A stretch of DNA of 64,000 nucleotides from Longimicrobiales bacterium (lineage in GTDB: Bacteria; Gemmatimonadota; Gemmatimonadetes; Longimicrobiales; Gaopeijiaceae). The notes below the pieces were generated by a model, which made no database searches, was not told where the DNA came from, and worked only from the letters and a program-made list of their open reading frames with translations. The stretch lies in contig OZ244037.1 of the NCBI GenBank assembly GCA_965215065.1, positions 3,779,371-3,843,370 on the forward strand, in the 5' to 3' direction. The first letter of the stretch is position 1. Each line of letters opens with the position of its first letter. Below are positions 1,358 to 55,070 of the stretch, one piece after another. The translations under genes were made by a program, and so were the position numbers.

Positions 1358-1375
1358 AGCCCGTTGTGACTCCCT
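1313..1375. repeat. 21-bp tandem repeat x3 at the pspA/aminotransferase junction
   Basis: Units are cacagccggtcgtgactcgcg, catggcccgtcgtgactcgct and cacagcccgttgtgactccct. Each begins with the complement of a start codon. Confidence 0.8.
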
Positions 1376-2196
1376 CTCCGCTCCATCCGCTCGAACTCCT
1401 CGATGAGTTCCGCGTCGCGGATCGGCGTGCTCGACGCCGCATCGGCTGCGCTGCCGTCTTCCTCCTGCCCGTCACCCGCCCGCAGCTGCTTCGGCGCTTC
1501 CGGCGCGCCGGAGGGAAGGAGGCCCATCTTGGCCTTCAGCGCCAGCAGTTTGTCGTCGAGATCGGTGGCGGTGGTTCCCGCTTCGAGGCGGACGAACTCC
1601 TTCTCCAGCGTGTCGCCGGCCAGCGCCTCGTTCACCTCGGCCTGGGCCAGGTTCCGCCGTTCCTCTTCCTCGATCCTCTCCGCCATGCGGTTGAACGCTT
1701 CAAAAGCCGATGTGTCGGACAGGCCGGACATGGTCTCGTGGATGCGCTTCTGCGCCTGCGCCCGCTTCTGCTTGGCGATCAGCAGATTCCTCTTGCGCTT
1801 CGCCTCTTCGATCTTTTCGTGGAGCTGACGAAGCGAAGCCTTGAGGTTCTCCGTTTCCTGCTTCTGAGCCTCCCAGCTACCCCGCAACGCCTTCACGTGC
1901 TCGGCCTGTTCCTCGTGCCGGACCAGCGCCTGCTTGGCCATGTCGTCCCGCTTCTCCTGCACGGCCAGCACGGCACGCCTCTCCCAGGCCTTCATCTGCT
2001 TCGTCGCCTCGTCCAGCTGACGCTTGAGCTTGCGTTCGTCGGCGATCGCGCCCGCGACTTCACGCTTCGCCTTGGCCAGCTGGTCCCGCATGTCCAGGAT
2101 GATCTGGTTCAACATCTTTTCCGGATCCTCCGCACGGGAGATCAGGTCGTTGATGTTGGATTTGATCATCGTCGAGAACCGGCTGAAAATGCTCAT
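1354..2196 (-). CDS. pspA: PspA/IM30 family phage-shock protein A
   Basis: The 280-aa ORF starts MSIFSRFSTMIKSNINDLISRAEDPEKMLNQIILDM, the canonical PspA/Vipp1 N-terminus. The rest is a long coiled-coil-type charged sequence. ATG at 2196 overlaps the upstream stop (ATGA). Confidence 0.9.
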   Translation of the reverse strand: MSIFSRFSTMIKSNINDLISRAEDPEKMLNQIILDMRDQLAKAKREVAGAIADERKLKRQLDEATKQMKAWERRAVLAVQEKRDDMAKQALVRHEEQAEHVKALRGSWEAQKQETENLKASLRQLHEKIEEAKRKRNLLIAKQKRAQAQKRIHETMSGLSDTSAFEAFNRMAERIEEEERRNLAQAEVNEALAGDTLEKEFVRLEAGTTATDLDDKLLALKAKMGLLPSGAPEAPKQLRAGDGQEEDGSAADAASSTPIRDAELIEEFERMERRGSHNGL

Positions 2197-2814: not shown

Positions 2815-3324
2815 CTAGTTTTTCGCCAGCTGTACGAGATCCTCCAAGGTGGCCACACCACGGTGGAAACCGCCGTACGAAACGAAGGTCGGGGTCGCGC
2901 GGACCCCGATTTCCTTGGCAACGGCGATGTGCCGTGCCAACCCTTGCTCCGTGCCCGGCGCATCCAAGCACTCGTTGAATTGCTTCAGATCCGTAACCCC
3001 CGCATCGCGAGCCAATCGGCCCCAATCGGTATCGTCCATCCACTCACGGGTGGACATGAGGATGTGGTTCATCTCATCCGCGGATCGCTGCGCTTCCGCG
3101 CACAGACTTGCCTTGGCTGCGGGCTTCGCCAGAGGGTGGATCAACTCGAGCGGGAAGTGCATGACGACCACGTCGAACCCGTTCTCGTCAGCACCCTGCT
3201 TGAGGACATCGTGCATTTCCCGGCAGTAGGAGCACTGAAAGTCGATGAACTCGATGATCGTCGGCCGCTCCGGATCCACCTGCCCTTCGGAAACCAGCCG
3301 CTCGAGGAAGGCGTGGGCCGCCAT
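2815..3324 (-). CDS. DsbA-family thioredoxin-fold thiol:disulfide oxidoreductase-like protein
   Basis: 169 aa with a CxxC active-site motif in IIEFIDFQCSYCREMH and the late cis-Pro region GVRATPTFV, typical of DsbA-like proteins. No obvious signal peptide. Confidence 0.75.
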   Translation of the reverse strand: MAAHAFLERLVSEGQVDPERPTIIEFIDFQCSYCREMHDVLKQGADENGFDVVVMHFPLELIHPLAKPAAKASLCAEAQRSADEMNHILMSTREWMDDTDWGRLARDAGVTDLKQFNECLDAPGTEQGLARHIAVAKEIGVRATPTFVSYGGFHRGVATLEDLVQLAKN

Positions 3325-4471: not shown

Positions 4472-7353
4472 CGTACGCGGGCCGACCCCAGGAGCGGCGC
4501 GAGGTACTCCCCGGTGTACGATGCGGGCTCTTCGGCCACGCGCTCCGGTGTTCCCTCGACCACGATGCGCCCGCCGGCGTCGCCGCCCTCCGGGCCGAGG
4601 TCGATGACCCAGTCGGCGGTCTTGACCACATGCAGATTGTGTTCGATGACCACGACGGTGTTGCCGCGGTCGACGAGGCGGTGCAGCACCTTGAGCAGGA
4701 TCCTGATGTCCTCGAAGTGCAGGCCGGTGGTGGGTTCGTCCAGGATGTAGACGGTACTGCCGGTGGCCTTCTTCGAGAGCTCGGCGGAGAGCTTGATCCG
4801 CTGGGCCTCCCCCCCCGAGAGGGTCGTGGCGCTCTGACCCAGGTGGATATAGCCGAGTCCCACATCGGACAGCGTCTGCAGGCGGCGCTTGATCCCGGGC
4901 ACGGCGTCGAAGAAGTCGAGCGCGTCGTCCACGGTCATTTCGAGGACATCGGCGATGTTGCGGCCCTTGTAGTGGACGTCGAGGGTCTCGCGGTTGTAGC
5001 GGCGGCCCCGGCACGCGTCGCAGGAGACGTAGACGTCCGGGAGAAAGTGCATCTCGATCTTGACCAGCCCGGCGCCCTGGCAGGACTCGCAGCGCCCTCC
5101 CTTCACGTTGAACGAAAAGCGCCCGGCCTGGTAGCCCCGGATCTGGGCCTCGGGAACTCCCGCGAAGAGTTGGCGGACGGGGGTGAAGAGGCCCGTGTAG
5201 GTGGCCGGATTGGAACGCGGCGTCCGGCCGATGGGCGACTGGTCGACTTCGATCACCTTGTCCACGCCGGACAGCCCGTCGATGCGGTCGTGCGCGCCGG
5301 CCACGGCGCGGCTCCGGTAGAACTGCCGGGACAGAGCGCGGTAGAGCGTGCCGTTCACGAGCGTGGACTTGCCCGAACCGCTCACGCCCGTCACGGCCAC
5401 GAAGCAGCCGAGAGGAAAGGCCGCGTCGATGCTCTTGAGGTTGTGCTGGCACGCGCCCCGAACGGTGAGACACCGGGCCGCGTCGGGTCTGCGCCGTTTT
5501 TCCGGCAGGGGTATCTCGCGCTCTCCGCGCAGGTAGGCGCCCGTGATCGATTCGGGGTGGGCGCGCACCCGCTCCACGGGCCCTGCCGCCACCACCTCTC
5601 CCCCGGCCCGGCCCGCTCCCGGACCCAGGTCGACCACGAAGTCGGCGGCGAGGATGGTGTCCTCGTCGTGCTCGACCACGATGACCGAATTCCCGAGGTC
5701 GCGAAGATCCTGCAGCGTGCGCAGAAGGCGGTGGTTGTCGCGCTGGTGCAGCCCGATGGACGGTTCGTCCAGGATGTACAGCACGCCCACGAGGCGGCTG
5801 CCGATCTGCGTCGCCAGCCGGATCCGCTGGGATTCGCCGCCCGACAGGGTATCGGCCGAGCGGCTCAGCGACAGATAGTCCAGCCCCACGTTTCTCAGGA
5901 AGCCCAGGCGTTCGCGCACCTCCTTGAGGATCGGGCCGGCAATCTCGCCGGACAGCGGGCTGCCGGGCGCGGGCTCGACACCGCGGGGAAGCGTCTCTCC
6001 CGTGACGGGAAGCGAGCGCATGAAAGCGAGGACCTCGCCGATGGGCCGGTCCACGATGCCGCTGATGCCGAGTCCCCCGATCCGCACCGACCTCCCCAGG
6101 GGACCGAGGCGCGAACCCCCGCACTCCGCACAGCTCCGGCTCGACATGTACTGGTCGAGCTGTTTGCGCACGTGTTCCGAGCCGGTCTCGCGGTAGCGGC
6201 GCTCGACGTTGGCGACCACGCCCTCCCAGTAGTCTTCGTAGTGGCCGCGCATCTTCCCCGCGTTGTAGGGGAACCGGATCTTCATGCCGCCCGAGCCGTT
6301 CAGGAGCGCGTCGCGCGCCTCGACGGGCAGGTCGCGCCAGGGGGTGCGCGGGTCGAACTCGTAGGCGCGGGCCAGCCCCGGTATCACCGAGCCGCGCAGA
6401 TGTCCGCCGGGCTCGCCCCAGGGGATGATGACGCCCTCCAGGACCGAGAGCGAGGGGCTGGCCAGGAGGAGCGACCCGTTGACCTCCTTCGTGGTGCCCA
6501 GGCCGCCGCACGACTGACAGGCTCCGTGAGGGGAGTTGAACGAGAAGACGCGCGGTTCGAGTTCCGGGAAGCTGGACCCGCAGTTCGCGCAGGCGTAATG
6601 CTCGCTGAAGAGGTGGGAGGTGTCGCGACCGCCCTGCCGCTCGATGATCTCGACCACTCCGTCCGCAGCCTGCAACGCCGTTTCGACGGAGTCGGACAGA
6701 CGCGTGCGGTCCTCCCCGCGGACGACCAGCCGGTCGACGATGATCCCGATGTAGTGATTCTCGTAGCGGTTGAGAGGCGGGATCTCGCGTAGGTCGTGCA
6801 CTTTGCCGTTGACTAGAGCGCGGACGAAACCGTCGCGGGCGGCCTTGTCGAACAGGTCGCGAAACTCTCCCTTGCGGCCTCGCACGAGAGGCGCCACCAC
6901 CTGGATCCGGGCTCCCTCTCCCAGCGCCAGCACCTGGTTGACGATCTGAGTCGCCGACTGCCGCATGACGGGCAGGTCGCAGTCCGCGCAGTACGGCGTC
7001 CCGGCGCGCGCGTAGAGGAGCCGGAGGTAATCGTAGATCTCGGTCACCGTGCCCACGGTGGAACGCGGGTTCCTGGACACGGACTTCTGTTCGATCGAGA
7101 TCGCCGGAGACAGTCCTTCGATGGCGTCCATGTCCGGCTTTTCCATCAACCCCAGGAACTGGCGCGCGTAGGCCGACAGCGACTCGATGTAGCGGCGCTG
7201 TCCCTCGGCGTAGATGGTGTCGAAGGCGAGCGAAGACTTTCCCGATCCGGAGAGCCCGGTGACCACCACGAGCCGTTCCCTCGGGATCTCCAGGCAGATG
7301 TCCCTGAGGTTGTGCTCTCTGGCTCCGCGGACGACGAGTGCGGGAGGACTCAA
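4468..7353 (-). CDS. uvrA: Excinuclease ABC subunit A
   Basis: 961 aa with two ABC ATPase modules ([41 protein letters not shown]) and zinc-finger Cys clusters. TTG start at 7353. Confidence 0.98.
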
Positions 7354-7356
7354 GGT

Positions 7357-10300
7357 TCAGTAGCCCCATTCCCGGAACAGGAGGAACCCCCAGATGTTCT
7401 CCAGCGCGAGGGAGGCGTCGCCCAGCCCCCGGTAGCGTTCCCGCGTGCACCGGCCCTCCATGAATCCTTGCAGCCTCACATCGCGCGGCATCCCCATCTC
7501 GATCCGCAGCCCGCCGCTGTTCCTCGGCAGCGTCGGATCGGTGCAGAAGCCTCTCTGGAACACGCCCGTCAGGAAGACATCGTCGAGGACGTACTTCCCG
7601 ACTTCGAGCTGAAGCGACGATGCGCCGAAGGCCGCGCTCGCCTGCCCCTCGGACCGTGAAACCGAGATGTGATCCACGCCGAGGCCCGTGGCGACGAGAT
7701 AGCTGATCTCGTTGGCGAACCGGCCCAGGAGCAGGTCCCGCCCCGCCCCGACCGATGCCCCGGCCTCTCCGATCAGGGCCGAAGTAGGACGCCCGAGGAA
7801 GAGGTAGTTGATCAGGTCCGCCTCGGACATCGCCGACTCGGCATCGCTGGAAAAGCTCGGGACGGGCGACAGGAGGGTGCCCGAAATGTCGGCGGTGATC
7901 ACGAGGGGCTGCCCTTCGCGGGTACGGAGCCTCGTCTCCGCCGTGACCGCAATGCCCGGGTTGAAGCCCGGGGTGCCCGGGAACCTGAAAACACCTTCCG
8001 TCAGCGTCAGAGGGCGCGGGCCCAGACTGTAGGTACCCCGCGCGACCTCCATTTCGCCCTGGAGGATCAGCTGGTTTCCGCGGCGGTCGAAGGTCAGCGT
8101 CAGGTCACCCGTCGTTTCCACGTTCATCTGGCGCGAGCGCAGGAAATTGCCCCGGCCCACGCGCATGTCGATCAGAACGCGCAGGTTCTGCAGGAACGGA
8201 ATCCGTTCTCCGCCGGCCTCGTCGTCGTCATCGGAGCCGATCTGCACGGTTGCGGCACTGAACAGGGCCGGGTCGTACAGGTCCACGACCTCGGCGGTGC
8301 GCTGGAACTCTTCCATGAAGACGGTGCCGCCCTCCACCTCCACGGTCCCCTCGATGTAGGGAAATTCGTAGGACCCGGTCAGCGTGATCGATTCACTGCT
8401 GACCGCAGCCTTCATGTCCGCCCGGTCCACGATCTGGAACCGATCGGTGCGGAAGGCCAGGTTCAGCGGCACGCTGTCGGCGAGCTGCCCCAAGTCAACC
8501 GTTCCCTCGACCTCCGCGGTGCCGTCGCCGGAAACGCCCGCTCCGGTGACCCTCACGACTCCGTGGGGGCTGAGACCCACGTCCGCTGCGACGGCGGACA
8601 GCCGGACTCCGAGGGGAGCCACCAGCGCGGAGAAGTCCTCCAGCCGGAGCTCGCCGTCGGGTGCCATGTCCGATGGGAGTCCGCCCAGCGTGACATCGCC
8701 GGTGATCGTTCCGTCGACCTCTTCGAGCGACTTCAGGGCACCCAGAACCATTCGGGCGGGGAACGAGTCGGCGGCGACGGCCAGATCCACCGGGCGGTCC
8801 GGCACCCTGTCCGCGACGGACGCCAGGCGGAGGTCCAGAGGCACGATTCCCTCGACCTGTATGGTGCGCCGGTGATTCGTCCAGCTTTCGAACTCGGTCT
8901 CGAGGGTGCGATCCGCGTAGGATCCGCGAACGGACACGCTGTCGAAGAGCAGCGTCTGATATTCCGCCCGGTCCACGCGAATCATCCCCTTCCACTCGGG
9001 ATCGTCTCCCGATCCCGTCGCATCGAGCGTCGCCGCCAGAATCCCGGTCGGCGGCGCGTCCATCTGGAGAAGGCGTCCCAACACTTGGAGATCAAGCCGG
9101 TCGGCCCGCAGCTGGAAGTCGGAATCGCTTCGGCCCCGGGACAGGCGGCCGTGCGCACGGAGACTCAGGCCGCCGAAGCCCGGACGGATCAGGCCGAAGT
9201 CCCTGACCTCGACGGCGTCAGGACCCCAGTCGAAGCGGGCCGGTCCCTGCAGATTCCATCGCCGTTCGTCGTCGAAGGCCAGCGTGAGGCGGTCCAGGTC
9301 GACTCGCCCTCCTTGCTCGTCGAGCTGTACCACGGCCTGCGCTTCGTAGGACTCGTCCTCCGCACGCCGGACCAGCGCACGCAACCGCCCCCGGTCGCCC
9401 AGGGCGAGATCCCCCTCGAGGGCGACGCGCTGGAATTCGCGGTCCCGGTAGGTGAGCGAGTCGCCCGTCACGGTGCCGCGGATCACCACGCGCGACGACG
9501 ACGGACTGTCGGCAGCGGACCGTCGGTCCTGCACGGCTGTCACGCCGCCCGCGCTCGTACCGGGATCGGCAAGGCTCATGCCGGTCACCCCGAGGTCCAC
9601 CCCCAGAGACCCGGCCGTGACGTGACCGTACTCGAGCCCTGCGAAGTCGACGGCGGCGGCCGCCGACAGATCGTCCAGGGCGCCGGTGAAGACGACTTCT
9701 CCGTCGACCCTGCCGTCAAAGCGGATGTCCCCGGCTCTCGGAAAGGTGTCCGGGTCTGCCCCGTCCACTGCGATCAGCAGATCCTGCTCGATGGGCGGCA
9801 GCTCGTCCCATGCGACCAGGTTCGGGCCCATGAAGATGTCGCGCAGAGGACGGATCGACGGCGACGACACGGACAGCACGACACCGTTCCCGGCGGCGTC
9901 CGAGGCGACACCGAGGCTGCCGCGACCCCGAACCGCAGTCCCTCCCGCCGCGGCGTAGACGGTCTCCACATGCAGCAGGCCCTCGGCGTCCACCCATGCG
10001 TCCAGCTCCGCGGAGTCCACCCGCAGGGGACCGATCGTGGAAGGTCCGGCGTCCAGCGCAAGGTTGCCCCGCAGGGACTCGCGGTCCAGTCCCCGTCCGT
10101 TGAGCATCGCTCTGCCGGCCACGATGGTCGAGTCGGGAAGCCGCGCGATGAGCCGTGACAGGTTCAGACCGTCGCTGGAGGCCGTGATGTTGTATCCGGC
10201 CGCAAGGTTCCGTGCATTGATCATGCCTTCGGCCGTCAGAGGACCGGCATCGGTTTCGAGGTCGACGGCGACGTTCAGGCGATCCATGGCGCCCCGGAGC

Positions 10301-22906: not shown

Positions 22907-23848
22907 CTACTCGAAGCGATCGCCGGGTCGGGGTCCTCGTCCCCGCAACCAGGCCGCGGCATCCATGCGCCGCTTTCCCGCGGGCTGGACCTCGCCGATC
23001 CGGAGCACGCCGTCCCCCGTGGCCACGAAGAGGCCGCGCCTGGGGCCCGCGGCCACGACCTCGCCGGCGAGCCCCTTCGTCGGCATCGGAGGGCTGGCCA
23101 CCACCGCCGGACGAAAGAGCTTTACCGGTGCTCCGCCGAGCCGCGTCCAGGCTCCCGGGATCTCGTCCATCGCTCTGATGAGGTCGGCCACCGCGCGGGC
23201 ATCCCTCCCCCATTCGATCCGTGCCGACCGGCGATCGACCTTCGGCGCGAAGGTGGCCGCCTCGTGATCCTGCTCCACCTCCTCCACCGATCCCGCCTCA
23301 AGCCGGGCCAAGACTTCCACCACGAGGCGCGCGCCCATGTCCGCGAGGCGACGCGAAAGCAGGAACGCCGTGTCGCCGCGGCCGATGGGAAGCGCCTGCT
23401 GTGCCAGCACCGGTCCCGCGTCCATCGCCTCGACCATGCGCATGACGGAGACGCCCGTGACCGCGTGTCCGCGCTCGATGGCCCGGTTGATGGGGGCCGC
23501 GCCCCTGAGCGCCGGAAGGAGCGACGCGTGCAGGTTCAGCGAACCGAGACGCGGGATGTCCAAGACCCGGCGCGTCAGGATGCGCCCGTAGGCGACGACA
23601 ACCGAAACATCGGGACACAGCGCCCGGATCGCGGTCTCGAAGGACTCGCCCCGCGGGCGCTCGGGAGTAAACACCCGATATCCTTCGGCGTCCGCGACCC
23701 GTCTCACGACCGATGGTTGCAGCGTGCGGCCACGTCCGCGTGGCCGGTCCGGCCGGGTCACGACCCCGATCACACTGTGCCCGGCAGCCGCGAGGGCCCG
23801 CAGCGTGGGGACCGCAAACTCGGGCGTGCCCCAGAAGAGGATCTTCAC
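22907..23848 (-). CDS. fmt: Methionyl-tRNA formyltransferase
   Basis: 313 aa with KILFWGTPEFAVP, NLHASLLPALRGAAPINRAI and a C-terminal Fmt domain. GTG start at 23848 overlaps the stop of the upstream paralog (GTGA). Confidence 0.95.
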   Translation of the reverse strand: MKILFWGTPEFAVPTLRALAAAGHSVIGVVTRPDRPRGRGRTLQPSVVRRVADAEGYRVFTPERPRGESFETAIRALCPDVSVVVAYGRILTRRVLDIPRLGSLNLHASLLPALRGAAPINRAIERGHAVTGVSVMRMVEAMDAGPVLAQQALPIGRGDTAFLLSRRLADMGARLVVEVLARLEAGSVEEVEQDHEAATFAPKVDRRSARIEWGRDARAVADLIRAMDEIPGAWTRLGGAPVKLFRPAVVASPPMPTKGLAGEVVAAGPRRGLFVATGDGVLRIGEVQPAGKRRMDAAAWLRGRGPRPGDRFE

Positions 23849-25077
23849 GGGCTGTCCGCGCTAACCTGCCCCGGAACCGACCTCGCCTGTTCCGGATCCA
23901 GCGGAAGCAACCTGCGCCCGACGATGTGCGGCACATCCAGCGAATCCCACCGGACCCCCCAGACATGGGTTGCCGTCGCGGTGCTGACCCGCAGGGACTC
24001 GGGCAGGAGCACGCGCCGCGGCTCCTCGCCCGGGTCCCTCGGCACCGCGTAGTGCGTCCTGAGCGTGTCCGAAACCTCGTGGGTCGCGAGCCAGACTTCG
24101 CCGGAGGCTGCAAGCGTGAACTCCTTCGCTGCCGGCAGTTCCGGCCTGTAGAGCGCTTCGTCGTACATGCGCCGAAGCTCCTGCCTGGACATTCTCTCGG
24201 CACGCAACGGCGGGAACACCCTTCCCTGCATCCAATCATCCACCATTCGGGAAGTCAGCCTTCGCGGCTCGAATTGCAGGTGCCGGTGCCAGACCGTATC
24301 CCCCTCCCCGTTCACTTCGAACAGTTCGACCGCACCGGGCGCTTCGTTCCGCCGCATCACCACCGCCCCGCCCGGCATCAGCCGGAACTGATCCGAATCT
24401 CGAAACGGCTGGGCTGAGTATGCCCCACCGTCGGGAAACCGGAGGGCGAGAGTCTTGTTGCGAACGTCCAGCCACAACAACCGCTCGGGAACATTCCACT
24501 GCCCGGTGGCGGAACGGCTGACGCGCAGCAGGGGCTGTCGGTCCATGGGGTCGACACCGTCCGCTCCGACTTGAAGGCGTGAAGGGATTCTCGCAGCGCC
24601 CACGAAGACGCCGTCCCCGGGAGGGGCCACCGCAACGGCGAAGCCCTGGTAGCTGACCCGCATTCCCGGTCCCAGCGCGGTCTCGATCAGCTCCCCATCC
24701 GCCGTGAAATAGGCGTGTCGGGTTCCCCAGAAGTCCACTACGGACAAGGTGCCGTCCGCCTCGAAGAACAGGTCTCCGGGAACACCGAACTCGCCGGGGC
24801 CCTCTCCCCTCCCGCCCACGACGAAGAGCAGGGAACCCTCCGGAGACCACGCGCTGATCTGGGGGCTGCCGTGGTCCACGACGAAAACCCGGTTCCGCAC
24901 GGGATCGGCGCGCACGACCGGCCGCCGGAAGATCACATCCCGTTCGGGGGCGTCGCCGAACTGGTACTCCGCTTCGGTGATCCACATCGAAGGGGCGTCG
25001 CCGGAGGTGGCGCTCTCGCCGCCGCCGCATGCGGCGCACAGGGAGAGGATCAGCGCGTTGCGCAGACGAACGGCCAC
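23845..25077 (-). CDS. GxGPGEF-motif beta-propeller-like lipoprotein, tandem copy P1
   Basis: 410 aa from GTG 25077; an in-frame stop lies just upstream, which fixes this start. Signal with Cys (LILSLCAACGGG), GGRGEGPGEF, and a C-terminal third nearly identical to P2 and P3. Confidence 0.8.
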   Translation of the reverse strand: MAVRLRNALILSLCAACGGGESATSGDAPSMWITEAEYQFGDAPERDVIFRRPVVRADPVRNRVFVVDHGSPQISAWSPEGSLLFVVGGRGEGPGEFGVPGDLFFEADGTLSVVDFWGTRHAYFTADGELIETALGPGMRVSYQGFAVAVAPPGDGVFVGAARIPSRLQVGADGVDPMDRQPLLRVSRSATGQWNVPERLLWLDVRNKTLALRFPDGGAYSAQPFRDSDQFRLMPGGAVVMRRNEAPGAVELFEVNGEGDTVWHRHLQFEPRRLTSRMVDDWMQGRVFPPLRAERMSRQELRRMYDEALYRPELPAAKEFTLAASGEVWLATHEVSDTLRTHYAVPRDPGEEPRRVLLPESLRVSTATATHVWGVRWDSLDVPHIVGRRLLPLDPEQARSVPGQVSADSP

Positions 25078-25145
25078 GGAATCACCGGTGGGGGGAAGAG
25101 GGCAGCCCTGACGAAGCTCGTGTGTGTTGTAGACCGTGGCGATCC

Positions 25146-25200
25146 CTACCCGCCAAGGGGGGCTCCGACCGCTGCGGTCGCATCTTCAGCTTCCAGCCGG
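25146..25200 (-). pseudogene. Relic of the 3-prime end of the Cys-rich protein gene, carried along by the duplication
   Basis: Minus-strand translation ...AEDATAAVGAPLGG-stop parallels the true gene end ...SSNVTAAVGAPLDG-stop at 27889-27945. Flanking nucleotides are also homologous. Confidence 0.55.
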
Positions 25201-25231
25201 CACTCTCGCACACGGTGCTTCCCCGCTAAGC

Positions 25232-25261
25232 TAAGGGACACTGTCGTAAGGGACACTGTCG
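25232..25261. repeat. 15-bp perfect tandem duplication (taagggacactgtcg x2)
   Basis: Read directly, in the 221-bp spacer between P2 and P1. Confidence 0.85.
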
Positions 25262-25298
25262 CCACAATCCCAACATACGCGAAGCGGTGCCCGCTAAC

Positions 25299-26537
25299 CT
25301 AACCTGCCCTCGGGACCGCCCTCGCCTGTTCCGGATCCAGCGGAACCAACCTGCGCCCGACGATGTGCGGCACATCCAGCGAATCCCACCAGACCCCCCA
25401 GACATGGGTCGCCGTCGCGGTGCTGACCCGCAGGGACTCGGGCAGGAGCACGCGCCGCGGCTCCTCGCCCGGGTCCCTCGGTACCGCGTAGTGCGTCCTG
25501 AGCGTGTCCGAGACCTCATGGGTCGCGAGCCAGACTTCGCCCGTGGCGGCAATCGTGAATTCCTTCGCTGCCGGCAGGTGTTCCGGCGCGTAGACCGCTT
25601 CGTCATATATGCGCCGAAGCTCCTGCTTGGACACTCTCTCGGTATAGTACGGCGCGAACGCCTCGACCTGTTTCTCGACCCAGTCGTCCACCATTCGGGA
25701 AGCCAGCGCTCGCGGCTCGAATTGCAGGCGGCGGTGCCAGACCGTATCCCCCTCCCCGTTCACTTCGACCAGTTCGACCGCACCGGGCGCTTCGTTCCGC
25801 CGCATCACCACCGCCCCGCCCGGCATCAGCCGCAACTGATCCGAATCTTTAAACGGCTGGGCTGAGTATGGCCGCCCACCGTCCGGAAACCGGAGGGCGA
25901 GGGTCTTGTTGCGAACATCCAGCCACAACAACCGTTCGGGATCATTCCACTGCCCGGCGGCAGAACGGCTGACGCGCAGCAGGGGCTCTCTGTACATGGG
26001 GCTGACACCGTCCGCTCCCACTCGGACGTCCAAAGGAATGCTCGCAACGCCCACGTAGACACTGTCTCCGGGAGGAGTCACCACGACGCGGAAGCCTTGG
26101 TAGCTGACCCTCATTCCCGGTCCCAGCGCGGTTTCAATCAGCTCCCCTTCCGCCGTGAAATACGCGTGCCGAGCTCCCCCCATATCCACTACGGACAAGG
26201 TGCCGTCCGCCTCGAAGAACAGGTCTCCGGGAATACTGAACTCACCGGGGCCCTCTCCTCTTCCGCCCACGACGAAGAGCAGGGAACCGTCCGGGGACCA
26301 CGCGCTGATCTGGGGGCTGCCGTGGTCCACGACGAAGACCCGGTTCCGCACGGGATCGGCGCGCACGACCGGCCGCCGGAAGATCACATCCCGTTCGGGG
26401 GCGTCGCCGAACTGGTGCTCCGCTTCGGTGATCCATGTCGAAGGGGCGTCGCCGGAGGAGGTGGCGCTATCGTCGCCGCCGCATGCGGCGCACAGGGCAA
26501 GGATCAGCGGCAGGGCGCTGCGCAGACGAACGGCCAC
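25299..26537 (-). CDS. GxGPGEF-motif beta-propeller-like lipoprotein, tandem copy P2
   Basis: Start set at GTG 26537, homologous to the P1 start; the track ORF runs to 26573. LILALCAACGGD signal and GGRGEGPGEF. TAG stop at 25299. Confidence 0.8.
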   Translation of the reverse strand: MAVRLRSALPLILALCAACGGDDSATSSGDAPSTWITEAEHQFGDAPERDVIFRRPVVRADPVRNRVFVVDHGSPQISAWSPDGSLLFVVGGRGEGPGEFSIPGDLFFEADGTLSVVDMGGARHAYFTAEGELIETALGPGMRVSYQGFRVVVTPPGDSVYVGVASIPLDVRVGADGVSPMYREPLLRVSRSAAGQWNDPERLLWLDVRNKTLALRFPDGGRPYSAQPFKDSDQLRLMPGGAVVMRRNEAPGAVELVEVNGEGDTVWHRRLQFEPRALASRMVDDWVEKQVEAFAPYYTERVSKQELRRIYDEAVYAPEHLPAAKEFTIAATGEVWLATHEVSDTLRTHYAVPRDPGEEPRRVLLPESLRVSTATATHVWGVWWDSLDVPHIVGRRLVPLDPEQARAVPRAG

Positions 26538-26588
26538 GGATTCACGGATCGACAAACGAACCGGCCCGGACAATGCTCGTGTCCGCCG

Positions 26589-27815
26589 CTAACCTGCCCC
26601 CGGAACCGCCCTCGCCTGTTCCGGGTCGAGCGGAACCAGCCTCCGCCCGACGATGTGCGGCACATCCAGCGAATCCCACCAGACCCCCCAGACATGGGTC
26701 GCCGTCGCGGTGCTGACCCGCAGGGACTCGGGCAGGAGCACGCGCCGCGGCTCCTCGTCCGGGTCCCTCGGCACCGCGTAGTGCGTCCTGAGCGTGTCCG
26801 AAACCTCGTGGGTCGCGAGCCAGACTTCGCCGGAGGCTGCAAGAGTGAATTCTTTCGCTGCCGGCAGGTGTTCCGGCGCGTAGAGCGCTTCGTCGTACAT
26901 GCGCCGAAGCTCCTGCCTGGGCACTCTCTCGGCATAGTACGGCGCGATCACCCTTCCCTGCATCCAATCATCCACCATTCGGGAAGTCAGCCTTCGCGGC
27001 CCGAAGTGCAGGTGCCGGTGCCAGACCGTATCCCCCTCCCCGTTCACTTCGACCAGTTCCACCGCACCGGGCGCTTCGTTCCGCCGCATCACCACCGCCC
27101 CGCCCGGCATCAGCCGGAACTGATCCGAATCTCGAAACGGCTGGGCTGAGTATGCCCCACCGTCGGGAAACCGGAGGGCGAGAGTCTTGTTGCGAACGTC
27201 CAGCCACAACAACCGCTCGGGATCTTTCCACTGCCCGGTGGCGGAACGCCTGACGCGCAGCAGGGGCTGTCGGTCCATGGGGGCGACACCGTCCGCTCCG
27301 ACTTCAAGGTGTGAAGGGATGCTCGCAGCGCCCACGTAGACACCGTCCCCGGGAGGGGCCACCGAGACGGCGAAGCCCTGGTAGCTGACCCGCATTCCCG
27401 GTCCCAGCGCGGTTTCGATCAGCTCCCCTTCCGCCGTGAAATACGTGTGCCGGCTTCCCCAGTAGTCCACTACGGACAAGGTGCCGTCCGGCTCGAAGAA
27501 CAGGTCTCCGGGAACACCGAACTCGCCGGGGCCCTCTCCTCTCCCGCCCACGACGAAGAGCAGGGAACCCTCCGGGGCCCACGCGCTGATCTGCGGGCTG
27601 CCGTGGTCCACGACGAAGACCCGGTTCCGCACGGGATCGGCGCGCACGACCGGCCGCCGGAAGATCACATCCATCTCCGGTGCGTCGCCGAACTGGTACT
27701 CCGCTTCGGTGATCCATGTCGAAGGGGCACCGCCGCCGGTGGCGCTCTCGCCGCCGCCGCAGGCAGCGCACAGGGCAAGGATCAGCGGCAGGGAGCTGCG
27801 CAGACGAACGGCCAC
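26589..27815 (-). CDS. GxGPGEF-motif beta-propeller-like lipoprotein, tandem copy P3
   Basis: Start set at GTG 27815, homologous to the P1 start; the track ORF runs to 27899 and would overlap the upstream gene. LILALCAACGGG signal and GGRGEGPGEF. Confidence 0.8.
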   Translation of the reverse strand: MAVRLRSSLPLILALCAACGGGESATGGGAPSTWITEAEYQFGDAPEMDVIFRRPVVRADPVRNRVFVVDHGSPQISAWAPEGSLLFVVGGRGEGPGEFGVPGDLFFEPDGTLSVVDYWGSRHTYFTAEGELIETALGPGMRVSYQGFAVSVAPPGDGVYVGAASIPSHLEVGADGVAPMDRQPLLRVRRSATGQWKDPERLLWLDVRNKTLALRFPDGGAYSAQPFRDSDQFRLMPGGAVVMRRNEAPGAVELVEVNGEGDTVWHRHLHFGPRRLTSRMVDDWMQGRVIAPYYAERVPRQELRRMYDEALYAPEHLPAAKEFTLAASGEVWLATHEVSDTLRTHYAVPRDPDEEPRRVLLPESLRVSTATATHVWGVWWDSLDVPHIVGRRLVPLDPEQARAVPGAG

Positions 27816-27888
27816 GGAATCACCGCCGTGGAGGAAGAAGGCAGCCCTACTAACGAAGCTCGTGTGTGTTGTAGACCCGTGGCGATCC

Positions 27889-28437
27889 CTACCCGTCAAG
27901 GGGGGCTCCGACCGCTGCGGTCACGTTTGAGCTTCCGGATGGTGGTGCCGGTGTGCCATCGCCAGTCGGCCGTGCATGTGTTCCACGCCAAGCCAAGCGA
28001 TCCTCGGCTGCGTGCTCAGACTCAAGCGCCCGCAGGGGTATTCGAGCGATGAGCGAACGATCGCACTTTCGCATGACGACCGCGTTCTCTCCGTCCATGA
28101 CGAAGAAGTGGCCACCGTCTGCCGGCAGCATTTCACGCGCCATGACCATCTCGATCGCCTGCTGATCGGTCGCCGCAGCTCCGGTATCGCAGTCTCCCCC
28201 ATGAGCCTGACACCAGTGGTCGTCCGGGGTACCTTGCTGTGCGCAGTCCGCAGAGCCTCCGTGCGCGCCCTTGCACTTGGAGCTGTCCTCATCGAAGGAA
28301 CTGGGGCCGCATACCACGCATTCGCCGATTGTCGGCTGCGCCGCACCCACGACGGGACTTGCCGCCAGCAGCGCGCCGAAGAGCAGAGGCACGGCAACGA
28401 TGGTGGTGGACAGGGGATTATGGGTCGTGTCCCTCAT
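27889..28437 (-). CDS. Cys-rich secreted protein, unknown family
   Basis: Internal ATG 28437 is preceded by GGGAGGA 8 nt upstream. 182 aa with a signal peptide (TTIVAVPLLFGALLAASPVVGAAQ). Cys-rich head: GECVVCGPSSFDEDSSKCKGAHGGSADCAQQGTPDDHWCQAHGGDCD. Confidence 0.65.
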   Translation of the reverse strand: MRDTTHNPLSTTIVAVPLLFGALLAASPVVGAAQPTIGECVVCGPSSFDEDSSKCKGAHGGSADCAQQGTPDDHWCQAHGGDCDTGAAATDQQAIEMVMAREMLPADGGHFFVMDGENAVVMRKCDRSLIARIPLRALESEHAAEDRLAWRGTHARPTGDGTPAPPSGSSNVTAAVGAPLDG

Positions 28438-28562
28438 GGAAGCATCCTCCCTATGGGGATTTGGTTTCGCCGCCTTGTGTCCGTAGGGGCGGCAGGCTCC
28501 AACAACATGAACGATCATACTGTAACCTCCGACGACCTTCGACGCCAGTCGACCACACAGCG

Positions 28563-29078
28563 CTATCGCCCCGCACCGCCCTGCATCTTTCGCCACTTCT
28601 TGAGGAGGATCCCCCGCTTCAGCGGTGACAGCCGGTCGATGAAGAGCACGCCGTCGAGATGATCGACCTCGTGCTGGAGAGCCCGGGCCAGCATCCCGTC
28701 GGCCTCGATGCGCACGGCGTCTCCATCCAGAGAGACGGCGTCGACCGTGACGCGCACCGAACGGGTCACCTTCTCCTCGATCCCCGGAATGCTCAGGCAC
28801 CCTTCGGTCGCCTTGTCCGTCCGCCTGCTCGACTCGACGATGACCGGATTGATCAGCGCGTGCACGTGCCGGCTCTCGTCCTCGTTCGTGACATCGGCGA
28901 CGACGATACGCCGCGACACCCCCACCTGCGGCCCCGCCAAGCCGATCCCCTCGGCCTGATACATCGTGTCGAACATGTCGCGGGCCAGACGCCGCACCTC
29001 GTCGGTGACCTCCTCGACGGGCTCCGCCGTCCTGCGCAGAACCTTCGCGCCCATGATCTCGATATCCAGCATTGCCAC
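28563..29078 (-). CDS. def: Peptide deformylase
   Basis: 171 aa with GIGLAGPQVG, EGCLSIPG and HEVDHLDG, the three PDF motifs. Start is GTG 29078 or ATG 29072. Confidence 0.95.
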   Translation of the reverse strand: MAMLDIEIMGAKVLRRTAEPVEEVTDEVRRLARDMFDTMYQAEGIGLAGPQVGVSRRIVVADVTNEDESRHVHALINPVIVESSRRTDKATEGCLSIPGIEEKVTRSVRVTVDAVSLDGDAVRIEADGMLARALQHEVDHLDGVLFIDRLSPLKRGILLKKWRKMQGGAGR

Positions 29079-51681: not shown

Positions 51682-51786
51682 GGCCGAGACGCGATTACCG
51701 CTTCTCGATGCACCGGACGCCCGCACGGGCAGCGCGCACGGAATGTGCGGGGGCCGAGACGCGATTACCGCTTCGAGATGCATCGG
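51682..51786. repeat. ~35-bp direct repeat with 70-bp period, duplicating the 3-prime end of the anti-sigma-like gene
   Basis: ggccgagacgcgattaccgcttc occurs at 51682-51704 and 51752-51774, with similar continuation. The second copy contains the real stop (RCISKR-stop). The first would read RCIEKR-stop. Confidence 0.7.
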
Positions 51787-52040
51787 GCCCCGTACTCGCC
51801 GGACAGCGACTCCGAGGTTCCGATCAGGTTCTGTGCCTCGCTTTCCAGCAGCACGGCGACGCCTGTTCGAATCACCCGGTCATAGCGCCGACACGACGAA
51901 CAGGAGTCCAGGTGAGCCAGCGCCCTGGTCCGCGCGGTCGGGTCAAGCTGATGGTCACGGTACTCCGAATACACATCGAGGAACCACCGACAGATCGGCG
52001 GTGAACCGAAGGGGCTGACTGCACTCGGATACTCGTTCAT
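51765..52040 (-). CDS. Zinc-finger (zf-HC2, HxxxCxxC) anti-sigma-factor-like protein, soluble
   Basis: 91 aa from ATG 52040: ...ICRWFLDVYSEYRDHQLDPTARTRALAHLDSCSSCRRY... This shows the C-x(n)-H-x3-C-x2-C ZAS pattern. No TM segment. Confidence 0.6.
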   Translation of the reverse strand: MNEYPSAVSPFGSPPICRWFLDVYSEYRDHQLDPTARTRALAHLDSCSSCRRYDRVIRTGVAVLLESEAQNLIGTSESLSGEYGARCISKR

Positions 52041-52105
52041 GGTCAAGACGCGCGTCAGCAGCACGCGACAACGGCTTAGGGAGACTTTCCGGCATCCACA
52101 CACTG

Positions 52106-52134
52106 TATACCGTCATGGATGCGTGTTTGTTTCC
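52106..52134 (-). promoter_or_regulatory. Candidate ECF-type promoter (GGAAAC - 16 nt - CGGTATA) upstream of the anti-sigma-like gene
   Basis: The minus strand reads GGAAAC aaacacgcatccatga CGGTATA. This resembles ECF consensus forms such as TGAAAC-N16-CGTA. It lies in an AT-rich spacer 66-94 nt upstream of ATG 52040. Confidence 0.2.
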
Positions 52135-52189
52135 CTAATCCTAACCCAAAGAGGACTCGAACTCCCGGGCCGGCGACTCGGGCGACCGT

Positions 52190-53387
52190 TCACGGATCGT
52201 CTGGATGTCGCTCGGTCGCGCCGGGCAGCATGGCCCTGTCGAACTGCAGCACGCGGATCACCGGTACATCGAGAGGCCCCCGGGCTATTCCGTAGATCCG
52301 ATTTCCGCCGACCGCCCGCACATCCAGATCGGACGGCAGCGTGACCGCCGTCGAGCCGGTGCCGAACGGCGCGAACACATGCCAGTCCGTGAAGCTCCAG
52401 TCCGTCGTGTCGATCATCCCGCGTACCCACACGAATCCTCTGGTGTCCACGATGATCTTCGATATACCGGGCTTCAACGCCGGCAGGACCCACCCCGCGT
52501 CCCGGGGGATCACCGTCCGCCTGGCCCGTTCTCGTGCAGTCAACCGCTCGCGATCCGTCGCCGACACCGGATCTCCCGCCAACCCGGTCTTCACGACGCT
52601 CGCGACCTTCGCGGAATCGGCCACCAGCGAATACCACGACATGGTTCCCGACAAGCCGTCAGCCACCACGACGACACTGTCCCCGGCCACGCCCCAGTGA
52701 CCTGCAATGCCGAAACGAGTGGCCGCCGGGCCCCAGGGCACACCCTCGCTGCGCTCGTACCAAATCGCGTCAAGCGATTCATACTCCAGCAACTCGGTCA
52801 TGACGCGACTGCTGTCCTGCAACAACAGAACATGTCCCGGAACGCCCACCTTGCCGCTCACCGGGTTCCAAGTGAATCTCGGCGGCGCCACCCCAAACCC
52901 AGGTGTCGGCACGCATCGGGATGACAAGCGCGAGCGGAGTGTCGCGAACCGTCGGCATCCGATGAGCCTCGATGAACTTTCCGTCCAAGCCGAAGTAGTG
53001 AACAAGGTACTGCCCGATGTCGAACACCAGGAGACGGTCTTCGCGCAATACGAGCTCAATGGCCCGGGAAAACTCGGCTGGGCCCGCGGCTCGTCTTCCG
53101 AATCTCCCGAATCTCCCGATCAACTCTCCGGTCGCCGAAAGATGGATGACGGACTGGTCGACCCCGTCCAGCACGTAGAAGTCTCCGTCGGGACCAACCT
53201 TGATGTCGACAGGCCGCGTCAGTTCGGTACCGGGACGCATTCCATCCACCACGAGCACTTCTTCAACGGCGAGCGCCGCACCGGACGGCGGTTCCTGAGC
53301 GACGACGGGCACCGCCGGAGGCAAGTATGATGCACCGATTGTTGCTAGCCCGATTCTTGGTGCTCTAGTCAACGCTGTCACGTCCAT
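52190..53387 (-). pseudogene. Fifth member of the GxGPGEF beta-propeller-like family, interrupted by a frameshift (or sequencing error)
   Basis: ATG 53387 follows GGGAGG. The N-terminal part lies in the frame of track ORF 52779..53447 (...GRFGRFGRRAAGPAEF...RADTWVWGG). The C-terminal part lies in the frame of 52190..53059 (APPRFTWNPVSG...GFVWVRG...IYGIARGPLDVPVIRVLQF). The frames switch near 52881-52900. The joined length of ~399 aa fits the family. Confidence 0.5.
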
Positions 53388-53401
53388 ATCCTCCCTGGTT
53401 G

Positions 53402-53584
53402 TCAAGCTAGATGACTTACCTTGGATCCCTTGTCGCCGCGACCGCAATACTGATCGCAGCTCTCGGGCGCCGGATCATTGTAGCACTCCAAGCAGACCGC
53501 CACCGCGGTGGATCCACCGGAGACGGCCACGAGGTAGGTGAGCGAAATGATCGCTCCGGACAGAAGAGTGCCGAGAATCTTCAT
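53402..53584 (-). CDS. 60-aa Cys-rich signal-peptide protein (candidate secreted peptide)
   Basis: ATG 53584 is preceded by GGAAAGGAAG and overlaps the upstream ORF stop (ATGA). Sequence: MKILGTLLSGAIISLTYLVAVSGGSTAVAVCLECYNDPAPESCDQYCGRGDKGSKVSHLA. It ends 14 nt before the propeller-family gene start. Confidence 0.5.
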   Translation of the reverse strand: MKILGTLLSGAIISLTYLVAVSGGSTAVAVCLECYNDPAPESCDQYCGRGDKGSKVSHLA

Positions 53585-53985
53585 GATGCTTCCTTTCCGC
53601 TTCTGGTTGACATTTCGGCTCTCAGTGGTCCCCATGACCACCGGAACTGAAGGATCTCGCGCTTCCCGCGGCGTAAGTCCGTAAACCGGAAATACGAGCC
53701 ACTTCGGCTAAACCAAGCCAGCTCATATGGATCACTCGACTGCGCATACAGAACTCCGCCCCGGTGTGCCGTGACGACATGACCATTCCCCGGAATAGTG
53801 ATAGTCGAACTCGGTGTTGAATGATCGGAAGTGTCACGAGCCACTACCCGCAACTGGAATTCTCCGTCGCGTATCTCGGCCAACAACCACATCGCGTCAT
53901 TTGTAACCGCAATGTCGCGTATGGTGATGTCGGATGCCACATACCGCTGAACCAGTGAATCTCGTTGGTCGATGATCCCAACCAT
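53581..53985 (-). CDS. Hypothetical protein, possibly the C-terminal remnant of a disrupted larger gene
   Basis: 134-aa ORF MVGIIDQRDSLVQRYVASDITIRDIAVTNDAMWLLAEIRDGEFQLRVVARD... The same frame stays protein-like upstream across an in-frame TGA at 54019-54021. Hand count gives about 54% G+C over 53701-53940. Confidence 0.35.
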   Translation of the reverse strand: MVGIIDQRDSLVQRYVASDITIRDIAVTNDAMWLLAEIRDGEFQLRVVARDTSDHSTPSSTITIPGNGHVVTAHRGGVLYAQSSDPYELAWFSRSGSYFRFTDLRRGKREILQFRWSWGPLRAEMSTRSGKEAS

Positions 53986-54211
53986 GGAGTCAGAAACCAG
54001 AAAGATCGTGTCATGGGTTCACGAGTACAGCTCTCCGGCCAGGGCGAAGTCCCTCGATTGACAGACCAAGGCCTTGTTACAATGGCGAGCGCGAAGATCA
54101 CTGCGAAAACGGCAAGTGCGCTCCTCCGGGTAATTCGGAAGTGCGACAGGCGTGCTCGATGCTGGGCAGAACGCCGTAGGTCAGCGAGTCGCCGTCCATT
54201 GGGGTCTCCAT
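53986..54211 (-). pseudogene. Fragments of a membrane-anchored protein directly after the ECF sigma gene (decayed anti-sigma-like gene?)
   Basis: Three successive frames carry fragments. The first is a 37-codon ORF from ATG 54211 (METPMDGDSLTYGVLPSIEHACRTSELPGG...). The second is a TM-like stretch, SALAVFAVIFALAIV. The third continues (...RDFALAGELYS-TGA-THDTIFLVSDS) into ORF 53581..53985. Confidence 0.3.
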
Positions 54212-54247
54212 CTGGGTCTGCCTTTCTCTCACAGATCTTCCACGACG

Positions 54248-54886
54248 CTACTTGATCATCGGAGCGATGATGTGCGCGAACCTGTTCCTGGCCCGGTTCA
54301 GCCGACTCTTGACGGTGCCCAAGGCGCAACCGGTGATTTCGGCCATCTCTTCGTAGGTCTTGCCGTGCAGCTCGCGCAGGACGAAGACCACCCGGTGATG
54401 CTCCGGCAAAAGGGCTGCCGCTTCGTCCACCTTCTCACGCAGGAAGCGCTTGCGGTAGAGGTCGTCCGGGCGCGTGGCCGGGTCTTCCCACTCCAACGGG
54501 CGGGAGTCGGCTTCCCAGCTCTTCGTCAGGGACTGGAAGAGCACCAGCGGGTCGCGGGAACGGCTGCGGAGCTCGTTCTTCGCCAAGTTTCCGGCGATGG
54601 TGTAGATCCAAGTGGAGAACTTCCGGGTCTGGTCGAAGCTGTGAAGGTGGCGATAGACACGAATGAAGGTTTCCTGGATCAGATCCTCCGCCCGTTCACG
54701 ATCTCGAATCATGCGGAAGACGAAATTCCGGAGGCGCTTGTCGTATCGGCGCACCAACTCGGTAAACGCGCGCTCCTCACCGTCGAGGCAGCACTGCACG
54801 ACCTGGCTGTCCTCGAGCTCAGCGAGTCTTTTCCTGCCCAGGCCGGTAGCTCTCCGGTCAGCGAGAATCGGGTTCGCGTGTCCCAT
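54248..54886 (-). CDS. ECF (group 4) RNA polymerase sigma-70 family factor
   Basis: 212 aa from ATG 54886. Region 2 is FTELVRRYDKRLRNFVFRMIRDRERAEDLIQETFIRVY. Region 4.2 HTH is YEEMAEITGCALGTVKSRLNRARNRF. One hand-counted line gives about 53% G+C. Confidence 0.9.
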   Translation of the reverse strand: MGHANPILADRRATGLGRKRLAELEDSQVVQCCLDGEERAFTELVRRYDKRLRNFVFRMIRDRERAEDLIQETFIRVYRHLHSFDQTRKFSTWIYTIAGNLAKNELRSRSRDPLVLFQSLTKSWEADSRPLEWEDPATRPDDLYRKRFLREKVDEAAALLPEHHRVVFVLRELHGKTYEEMAEITGCALGTVKSRLNRARNRFAHIIAPMIK

Positions 54887-55070
54887 GATTCCACCATCCT
54901 CTCGGCCATGGTCCGGGTTCAAAGTCACATTATTTATTGCGCATGAATCGTGCCGCCGCTCCAGACGCACCAAGACGCGGCTTGGCTCCGGCCATCTGTC
55001 CTCTGGGGGTGACACCGGATTCCCGCGCACAGGACACTACGCGTCTTGCCGACCCGGCGCGCTGCCGCTC

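Follow-up and report, generated by a model that had tools for sequence, protein, structure and literature searches.

Exported six-bladed beta-propeller proteins of the DUF5128 family (PF17170), known from Bacteroides as the BF3164/BF0058-like proteins, occur as multi-copy paralogues and sit beside small signal-peptide proteins of the NVEALA family (PF14055). The NHL propellers of Brat and TRIM2/3/71 have six blades, and in eukaryotes such domains are cytosolic modules that bind RNA or protein. In the quinoprotein amine dehydrogenases, namely methylamine dehydrogenase (heavy and light subunits) and quinohemoprotein amine dehydrogenase (beta and gamma subunits), a periplasmic propeller of seven blades is combined with a small, very Cys-rich subunit encoded by an adjacent gene. 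Here we describe a propeller gene with a small Cys-rich partner in a 64,000-nucleotide stretch of a Longimicrobiales bacterium (Gemmatimonadota, Gaopeijiaceae; assembly GCA_965215065.1, contig OZ244037.1, positions 3,779,371 to 3,843,370), which is called the window below. Its minus-strand region 52190..54122 is very probably the pseudogenised remnant of a three-gene operon, G1-S-D, which was probably acquired horizontally. Intact G1 is a protein of ~310-330 aa with a lipoprotein-like leader, intact S is a signal-peptide protein of 120-142 aa, probably exported by the Sec route, with 7-9 mature Cys, and intact D is an exported six-bladed NHL/DUF5128-type beta-propeller of ~380-400 aa. Signal and lipoprotein-like leaders were judged by eye throughout.

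A preliminary description of this DNA had proposed a two-gene extracytoplasmic module here, in which a Cys-rich signal-peptide protein (S1) precedes a propeller-like protein (D). The parts now recognised, including a third gene, the wrecked G1, which that description had overlooked, are listed below in the order of transcription. Their reference proteins are the 319-aa G1 of locus L003 and P0005, an intact 391-aa homologue that was retrieved with the reconstructed D and is 50% identical to it.

54015..54122, minus strand: N-terminal piece of the G1 remnant, with a hydrophobic leader and an SPWP.sC motif (tblastn with L003 G1)
53585..54018, minus strand: central and C-terminal pieces of the G1 remnant, including the 134-aa open reading frame (ORF) 53581..53985 (tblastn and hidden Markov model, HMM)
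53402..53584, minus strand: S1, a truncated S-family member of 60 aa with a signal peptide, a C-x2-C head and only the first four Cys
52897..53387, minus strand: N-terminal part of D up to the frameshift (tblastn, 49% identity to P0005 residues 14-166)
52894..52896, minus strand: frameshift site of D, TTT against TT in the sister genome, that is, one extra T (pairwise alignment of the window with L020)
52190..52893, minus strand: C-terminal part of D in another frame (50% identity to P0005 residues 136-385 in a 251-aa tblastn alignment)

The Cys-rich signal-peptide ORF at 53402..53584 is present as predicted. S1 (MKILGTLLSGAIISLTYLVAVSGGSTAVAVCLECYNDPAPESCDQYCGRGDKGSKVSHLA) has a Shine-Dalgarno-like sequence, GGAAAGGAAG, five bases upstream of its start, its start codon shares an ATGA with the stop of the ORF before it, and NCBI/ENA annotate it as a gene. 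The hydrophobic leader is followed by CLECYNDPAPESCDQYC, and the mature start reads ...AVAVCLEC. A search of a 5.8-billion-protein index returned no relative except S1 itself, and homologues surfaced only through the reading of uncalled ORFs beside propeller homologues. S1 is 49% identical over 45 aa to the S ORF of L003 (tblastn against the window, E=1e-9) and matches the S-family HMM with E=5e-9, a score reached by 0 of 5000 shuffles, and this homology rules out a chance ORF. The alignment covers only residues 29-72 of the 154-aa L003 ORF and ends after the fourth Cys. S1 therefore is not the complete 60-aa protein that it had been taken for; it lacks the C-terminal S.AGT...C.GFVV.H domain, the most conserved motif of the family.

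The upstream Cys-rich partner of the propeller, suspected from the window only, proved to be conserved elsewhere. In L003, an uncalled ORF within 500 nt upstream of the propeller encodes S (~136 aa, nine mature Cys, reading ...AMCKQCYNHPKPSCDQYCSAGDW...), G1 lies directly before it, and S1, the G1 pieces and the two halves of D in the window are homologous to these three adjacent genes (tblastn E=1e-9, 6e-21 and 2e-74, respectively). The L003 S gene (9443..9907, plus strand) had been passed over by the gene finder and the protein index does not contain its product, which means that annotations can miss S-family genes. L005 has G1, two tandem S copies (1084..1512 and 1606..2028, nine mature Cys each) and the propeller P0007 (37% identity to P0005). 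In L010, L011 and L012, G1 (E=4e-13 to 1e-8) and S (E=3e-7 to 1e-4) were recovered by HMMs built solely from the distant L003 and L005 proteins, in exactly the order G1-S-propeller with gaps of 9-130 nt. In L010, these three genes lie at 3557-4486, 4496-4858 and 4926-6074, respectively. Intact S genes are thus found directly 5′ of propellers in L003/L004, L005 (two copies), L010, L011 and L012, and the intact order G1, S (one or two copies), propeller holds at five loci on two metagenome contigs and in three Longimicrobium metagenome-assembled genomes (MAGs). Pairwise identity among the propellers of these loci is only ~27-50%. Coupled translation of G1 and S is suggested by their ATGA overlap, seen both in the window and in L003, and by a spacing of 9 nt in L010 and L012. 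Of the module proposed earlier, the pairing therefore stands as real and apparently undescribed, but the unit comprises three genes, not two, and in the window it is a relic.

The cassette is present in roughly six of the ~18 loci sampled. HMMER with P0005 against 1.84 billion representative proteins gave 9675 matches, mostly giant NHL-repeat proteins, among which ~40 are single-domain relatives of 360-400 aa with 24-37% identity. A scan of GTDB anchored on the propeller only, with four of these single-domain relatives, led to MAGs of Longimicrobium, Longimicrobiales and Gemmatimonadetes and to one Acidimicrobiales MAG with a giant NHL-repeat protein, and GTDB genomes scanned with D-subfamily, S and G1 patterns gave nothing. 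At L010 and L011, an HtrA/DegP-like protease gene is convergent to the cassette (6150..7670 and 6265..7782, respectively, both on the minus strand); the L010 protein has Trypsin_2 and PDZ domains, and the L011 copy was assigned from synteny and sequence similarity. At L011 a divergently oriented gene encodes a sigma-54 response regulator. These neighbours may be links to envelope stress.

In the window, every gene of the cassette is damaged. Residues 2-34 of L003 G1 match 54122..54015 in frame -3 (tblastn), and the next piece begins at 54018 in frame -2, which means a loss of ~64 residues and a break in the reading frame. The pieces in 53585..54018 are 41% identical to L003 G1 over 116 aa (E=6e-21), include the C-terminal motif RREILQFRWSW (both by tblastn) and match the G1 HMM with E=9e-29, and a second internal stretch of ~75 residues has been deleted relative to intact G1. 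Where other loci have an intact G1 directly 5′ of S, the window thus has fragments in two frames. A propeller-type gene does follow S1 immediately, as had been described, and it is ~50% identical to P0005 but frameshifted. The region 52190..53387, taken earlier as one gene, falls into two frames, an N-part (52779..53387) that reads to ...ADTWVWGG and a C-part (52190..~52870), and the extra T at 52894-52896 separates them. The start at 53387 is preceded by GGGAGG, and NCBI/ENA annotate only the C-terminal half, as a 223-aa protein (P0004, 100% identical to the query). D further carries a 9-nt tandem duplication at ~53119, TCGGGAGAT. The GxGPGEF motif ascribed to this locus is degenerate (RRAAGPAEF), with Ala in place of the family-invariant Gly of RRGAGP and of the near-invariant Gly of GPGEF. 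In Pfam, the N-part stays below the cut-offs of both NHL (PF01436; 15.6 bits vs 20) and DUF5128 (13.3 vs 22.9).

The sister genome, GCA_964347385.1 (L020/L021), is 96-98% identical at the cassette remnant and has been disabled differently. There the 5′ end of S1 is deleted (window 53668..53425), and D has an additional A near window 53358, lacks one T near 53024 and is cut after ...WYSL by an insertion sequence (IS) element with an rve integrase. Both the extra T and the 9-nt duplication of the window are absent from this genome, whose protein P0016 reads through the frameshift site as ADTWVGVAPPRFTWNPVSGK. A programmed frameshift in D was considered and rejected; the sister genome simply has no extra T, and it bears other lesions. 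Because the disabling lesions differ between the two genomes, the decay is real and ongoing rather than a sequencing error. The window copy is a pseudogene relic and not a working module. The G1 fragment 54017..53836 is 100% identical in L020, and since both genomes share one G1 fragment and the truncated 3′ end of S1, G1 and S were likely damaged first, after which D decayed independently in each lineage.

A similar picture emerges from D-subfamily propellers elsewhere. All three that are without G1 and S are disrupted, by an IS21 insertion in L007, an internal deletion in L008 and an in-frame TAA in L009, whereas both that have their partners are intact; the numbers are small, and these sequences are consistent with a mutual dependence of the cassette genes. 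The TAA of L009 (900-902) lies only a few codons from the frameshift position of the window (WIGV*EPRFTWN vs TWVWGG/PPRFTWN), which is treated as coincidence. Further fragments or copies of the propeller family occur in the same islands as the D-subfamily genes of L003 (2000..3026, minus strand) and L008 (2405..3601, plus strand), among HEPN/nucleotidyltransferase, Fic, DUF433 and AAA_14/DUF4143 genes. The G+C content of the cassette is below that of its host (window, 0.54-0.62 compared with ~0.67; L003, 0.557 compared with 0.634), and the lowest stretch of the window (G+C ~67% overall) is 52001-54000 with 60.6%. No repeats that bracket the cassette as a signature of mobility were found.

As protein families, G1 and S are without match in Pfam, NCBIfam and PADLOC, and no paper on either was found in the literature. 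Both S subfamilies have C-x2-C at the mature N-terminus, (W)CQ...DC and the C-terminal S.AGT...C.GFVV.H; the Longimicrobium S proteins have 120 aa and seven Cys. The placement of C-x2-C right after the signal peptide, noticed earlier in S1 and S2 (the small protein of a second pair in the window, discussed below), recurs in all six intact S homologues. In the S alignment, a His and a Gln are invariant, the C-terminal domain also has an invariant Cys, and no Trp is invariant. The residue after C-x2-C in eight sequences is Y, Y, E, G, T, T, S and G but never H, by which a haem c site (CxxCH) was rejected. A match to NCBIfam ExtS lies far below its cut-off (E=0.068), and among PDB sequences the S head meets EGF domains alone, non-significantly (E ~1). 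The G1 profile weakly matches the YncE beta-propeller in PDB (E=5e-4), and G1 is probably propeller-like itself.

The AlphaFold2 model of P0005, an intact homologue and not the window protein, is an all-beta propeller with a predicted local distance difference test score (pLDDT) of 88.6 and a predicted template modelling score (pTM) of 0.84. Its top Foldseek matches are six-bladed NHL domains, the best with E=2.5e-11 and a template modelling score of up to 0.67 normalised to the target, and Bacteroides BF0058 (4raa). The cassette propellers share the blade motif G.GPGEF...VLD with NHL domains, and a remote relative, P0006, passes the NHL threshold (22.6 bits); in contrast to the cytosolic eukaryotic NHL domains they are exported, and the P0005 model has an extra helix insertion at residues 277-290. 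The DUF5128 cut-off is passed by P0005 (33.5 bits) and by the L010 propeller (32.7), which bears out the DUF5128-like character suggested earlier, with the limit that the Pfam match spans only ~80 residues, or roughly two blades. Window members A (19.2) and C (13.9) of the second pair, like D, remain below it, the window copies scoring 13-19 bits, and a further window member, E, has no match. Since intact relatives pass, the lineage belongs to this family; divergence or breakage keeps the window copies under the threshold. Export, multi-copy paralogy and a neighbouring gene for a small signal-peptide protein are common to the cassette propellers and those of Bacteroides; the differences are the Cys-rich S and the ever-present third gene, G1. 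The likeness to NVEALA-associated propellers that the preliminary description had raised did not hold on the side of the small protein. S1 and S2 (E<=1) and the L003 S (E<=5) gave no Pfam match at all, the S proteins of L010 and L012 had only unrelated Pfam matches at E 0.09 or worse, and literature queries with NVEALA, DUF5128 and BF3164 found nothing on the adjacency. With no S protein matching NVEALA or another Pfam family, the Bacteroides comparison is at most an analogy.

The remnant is flanked by genes of a regulatory type, which are context and lie outside the cassette.

54248..54889, minus strand: extracytoplasmic function (ECF) sigma factor (Pfam Sigma70_r2, 1e-20; Sigma70_r4_2, 4e-15)
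51765..52040, minus strand: RsrA-like zf-HC2 anti-sigma-like protein (Pfam zf-HC2, 7e-8, 32.8 bits vs a cut-off of 22.2)

The minus-strand order is ECF sigma factor, 134-aa ORF, S1, D, zf-HC2 anti-sigma-like gene and holA. Both flanking genes, already assigned to these families in the preliminary description, have genuine Pfam matches and fit the pairing of an ECF sigma factor with an RsrA-type zf-HC2 anti-sigma factor, although the NCBIfam anti-sigma and RsrA models match 51765..52040 only below their cut-offs. The sister genome shows synteny for the sigma factor gene, which lies upstream of the cassette remnant there too. The two genes are ~2.2 kb apart (51765..54889) with the remnant in between, and they are mere neighbours of it, as intact cassettes elsewhere have no such genes. 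The cassette may have been inserted inside a sigma/anti-sigma operon, which would make it the second example in the window of such a module within a conserved gene pair. Near holA there are two 40-nt direct repeats (51682-51721 and 51752-51791, 88% identical, 70-nt spacing), which run from within the 3′ end of the anti-sigma-like gene into the gap before holA. They are unrelated to the cassette and are possibly a regulatory or repetitive extragenic palindromic (REP)-like element.

The second pair that had been likened to S1-D consists of the following genes.

27889..28437, minus strand: S2, a 182-aa signal-peptide protein with seven mature Cys (one homologue, P0003)
23845..27815, minus strand: propellers C, B and A, tandem paralogues that are 85-90% identical (tblastn; family HMM E=2e-61 to 7e-67)

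S2 indeed lies directly upstream of propeller C (26589..27815). Together with the three tandem propellers it splits, in the same orientation, the near-universal def-fmt pair (22907..29078), and the stop of the last propeller overlaps the fmt start. The S2-propeller block is conserved only in the sister genome (L001), where there are two propellers and one is broken by a frameshift, so that the propeller array is dynamic. The syntenic orthologue P0003 (L001 10001..10495) is 78% identical to S2 and keeps all seven Cys. In this comparison no other gene of the block has diverged as far as S2 (neighbours 89-100%), which differs mainly in the inter-Cys loops and by a 19-residue gap in the C-terminal low-complexity tail. 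The ratio of non-synonymous to synonymous substitution (dN/dS) of ~0.5 between the sister genomes gives no sign of positive selection.

The three tandem propellers are complete in length but are distant members of the family, with ~23-27% identity to several representatives. As tblastn queries they do not match D or E at 1e-3, E is 34% identical to D over 84 aa, and one family HMM unites all five members. The five-member family noted earlier therefore holds as a family, but it is uneven, with A, B and C close to one another and D and E remote. The protein after member E (2815..3324, minus strand) contains the thioredoxin-type motif FQCSYC, in keeping with the CxxC protein described there. It starts 14 nt after propeller E in a different frame, and the ORF as it stands has no evident signal peptide; possible reasons are a wrongly set start or the splitting of an ancestral propeller-thioredoxin fusion.

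We tentatively propose, with more doubt than confidence, that G1-S-propeller is an envelope system with three components, previously undescribed, in Longimicrobiales and other Gemmatimonadota. A C-x2-C-headed, disulfide-rich S would be the obligate partner of two propellers; the system would move horizontally and decay when any partner is lost; and the S2 locus with its tandem propellers would follow the same principle in a second lineage that has diverged strongly. Apart from this wider proposal, the intact cassette would, as best we can judge, work as follows. G1, S and D would all be exported and G1 would anchor the complex to a membrane, while S, folded into a disulfide-knotted head and a small beta domain, would join two propeller-type proteins in a stoichiometric complex. 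The propellers would act as binding scaffolds and not as enzymes, because Gly, Pro and Trp are the sole invariant residues of the family (Asp, Glu and Phe nearly so). The genes would be interdependent, such that D decays once G1 and S are lost.

Several points weigh against this picture. The complex is one that we infer only. The odd number of Cys (seven or nine) and the invariant His and Gln in S could make up a metal or catalytic site instead. Many members of the wider propeller family are intact without G1 or S (L013, L014, L023, L025 and L024, the last with only ~156 nt of upstream sequence), so that the partnership does not hold throughout. The known independent cassette loci number only six; scans of JGI metagenomes and viral contigs and a tblastn of plasmids, with S, G1 or D patterns, found nothing, which leaves the sample small. 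As for the relic in the window, S1 retains a good ribosome-binding site and its signal peptide, from which a residual peptide might be made, and the single extra T in D, taken alone, could be an assembly error, as the remaining lesions could not be.

That S1 and D nevertheless form a working two-gene extracytoplasmic module, with S1 a genuine 60-aa secreted peptide and the split of D a sequencing error, is very improbable. It would account for the Shine-Dalgarno-like sequence, start codon, signal peptide, four conserved Cys and gene call of S1, for the ribosome-binding site that D has of its own and for the position of the frameshift in a short T run. However, it has to accommodate an S1 without the most conserved half of its family, a G1 wrecked by out-of-frame deletions, the Ala substitutions in both motifs of D, and a sister genome that has lost the 5′ end of S1 and carries a D frameshifted elsewhere and interrupted by an IS element; these lesions largely refute it. 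How S1-D relates to S2-C is a separate matter. That they are divergent lineages of one ancient module, with S2 a true homologue of S, is possible although doubtful. S2 directly precedes a propeller from the same superfamily, has C-x2-C at its mature N-terminus and, like Longimicrobium S, seven mature Cys, six of which are paired in register by hhalign and hmmsearch, including WCQ...DC. Its HMM score of 6.9 bits is attained by only 39 of 5000 composition-preserving shuffles, but that of P0003 by 220 of 5000; the mature part alone gives E=11 in a 4221-sequence database, and hhalign against the S family gives P=0.099 with a probability of 0.6%. Moreover, S2 lacks the invariant His of C.GFVV.H, its locus has no G1, and its AlphaFold2 model is unusable (pLDDT 46.5). 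The similarity of S1 and S2 seen by eye is thus not demonstrated homology.

Two other roles for the intact cassette have to be set beside the scaffold complex. S could be a secreted antimicrobial or toxin-like Cys-rich protein, and the propellers its immunity, maturation or delivery factors, which would make the cassette a mobile conflict module rather than a housekeeping one. We consider this unlikely. A patchy distribution, G+C below that of the host, frequent decay and the duplication of S in L005 would fit it, as would the D-subfamily loci among HEPN/nucleotidyltransferase, Fic, PIN-like, AAA_14/DUF4143 and transposase genes and the EGF domains, non-significant as they are, that the S head meets in PDB. 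PADLOC, bacteriocin and toxin families, however, are without match, no exporter or processing protease is conserved nearby, the analogous S2 has a dN/dS not above 1, and the Longimicrobium cassettes sit among ordinary genes, such as those for the HtrA-like protease, the sigma-54 regulator and a GSDH-family protein. A periplasmic redox or metal-handling complex, with S as the small subunit that carries a cofactor or metal, in analogy to the quinoprotein amine dehydrogenases, is more improbable still. The N-terminal C-x2-C, the odd Cys count and the invariant His and Gln of S could serve such a subunit; the pairing of a small Cys-rich protein with a propeller recalls methylamine dehydrogenase and quinohemoprotein amine dehydrogenase, and a thioredoxin-fold CxxC protein follows member E in the window. 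Against it, those propellers have seven blades and the cassette propeller six, sequence similarity is lacking, and a tryptophan-derived quinone cofactor, considered and rejected for S, is unlikely where no Trp is conserved. A haem c site is likewise missing, no radical SAM or MauG-like maturation genes are among the scanned neighbours of the cassettes, and neither His nor Cys is conserved in the propeller family. For the thiol, redox or metal role envisaged in the preliminary description no direct evidence was found, and the sigma/anti-sigma neighbours on which it drew are not conserved at intact cassette loci.

For the organism itself, the window locus is a dead remnant with little biological consequence. 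The independent lesions in two near-identical genomes nevertheless provide a clean, small example of the stepwise decay of a multi-gene module after its first component has been lost. The intact operon holds two families, G1 and S, beside exported propellers that form a large and uncharacterised family, in a phylum that has been little studied, and it would offer a concrete handle on the role of DUF5128-type propellers, namely the binding of a small disulfide-rich partner. If the proposed three-component system is real, the combination of a small exported partner with a DUF5128-type propeller would be a general theme, convergent or ancient, that is shared with Bacteroides.

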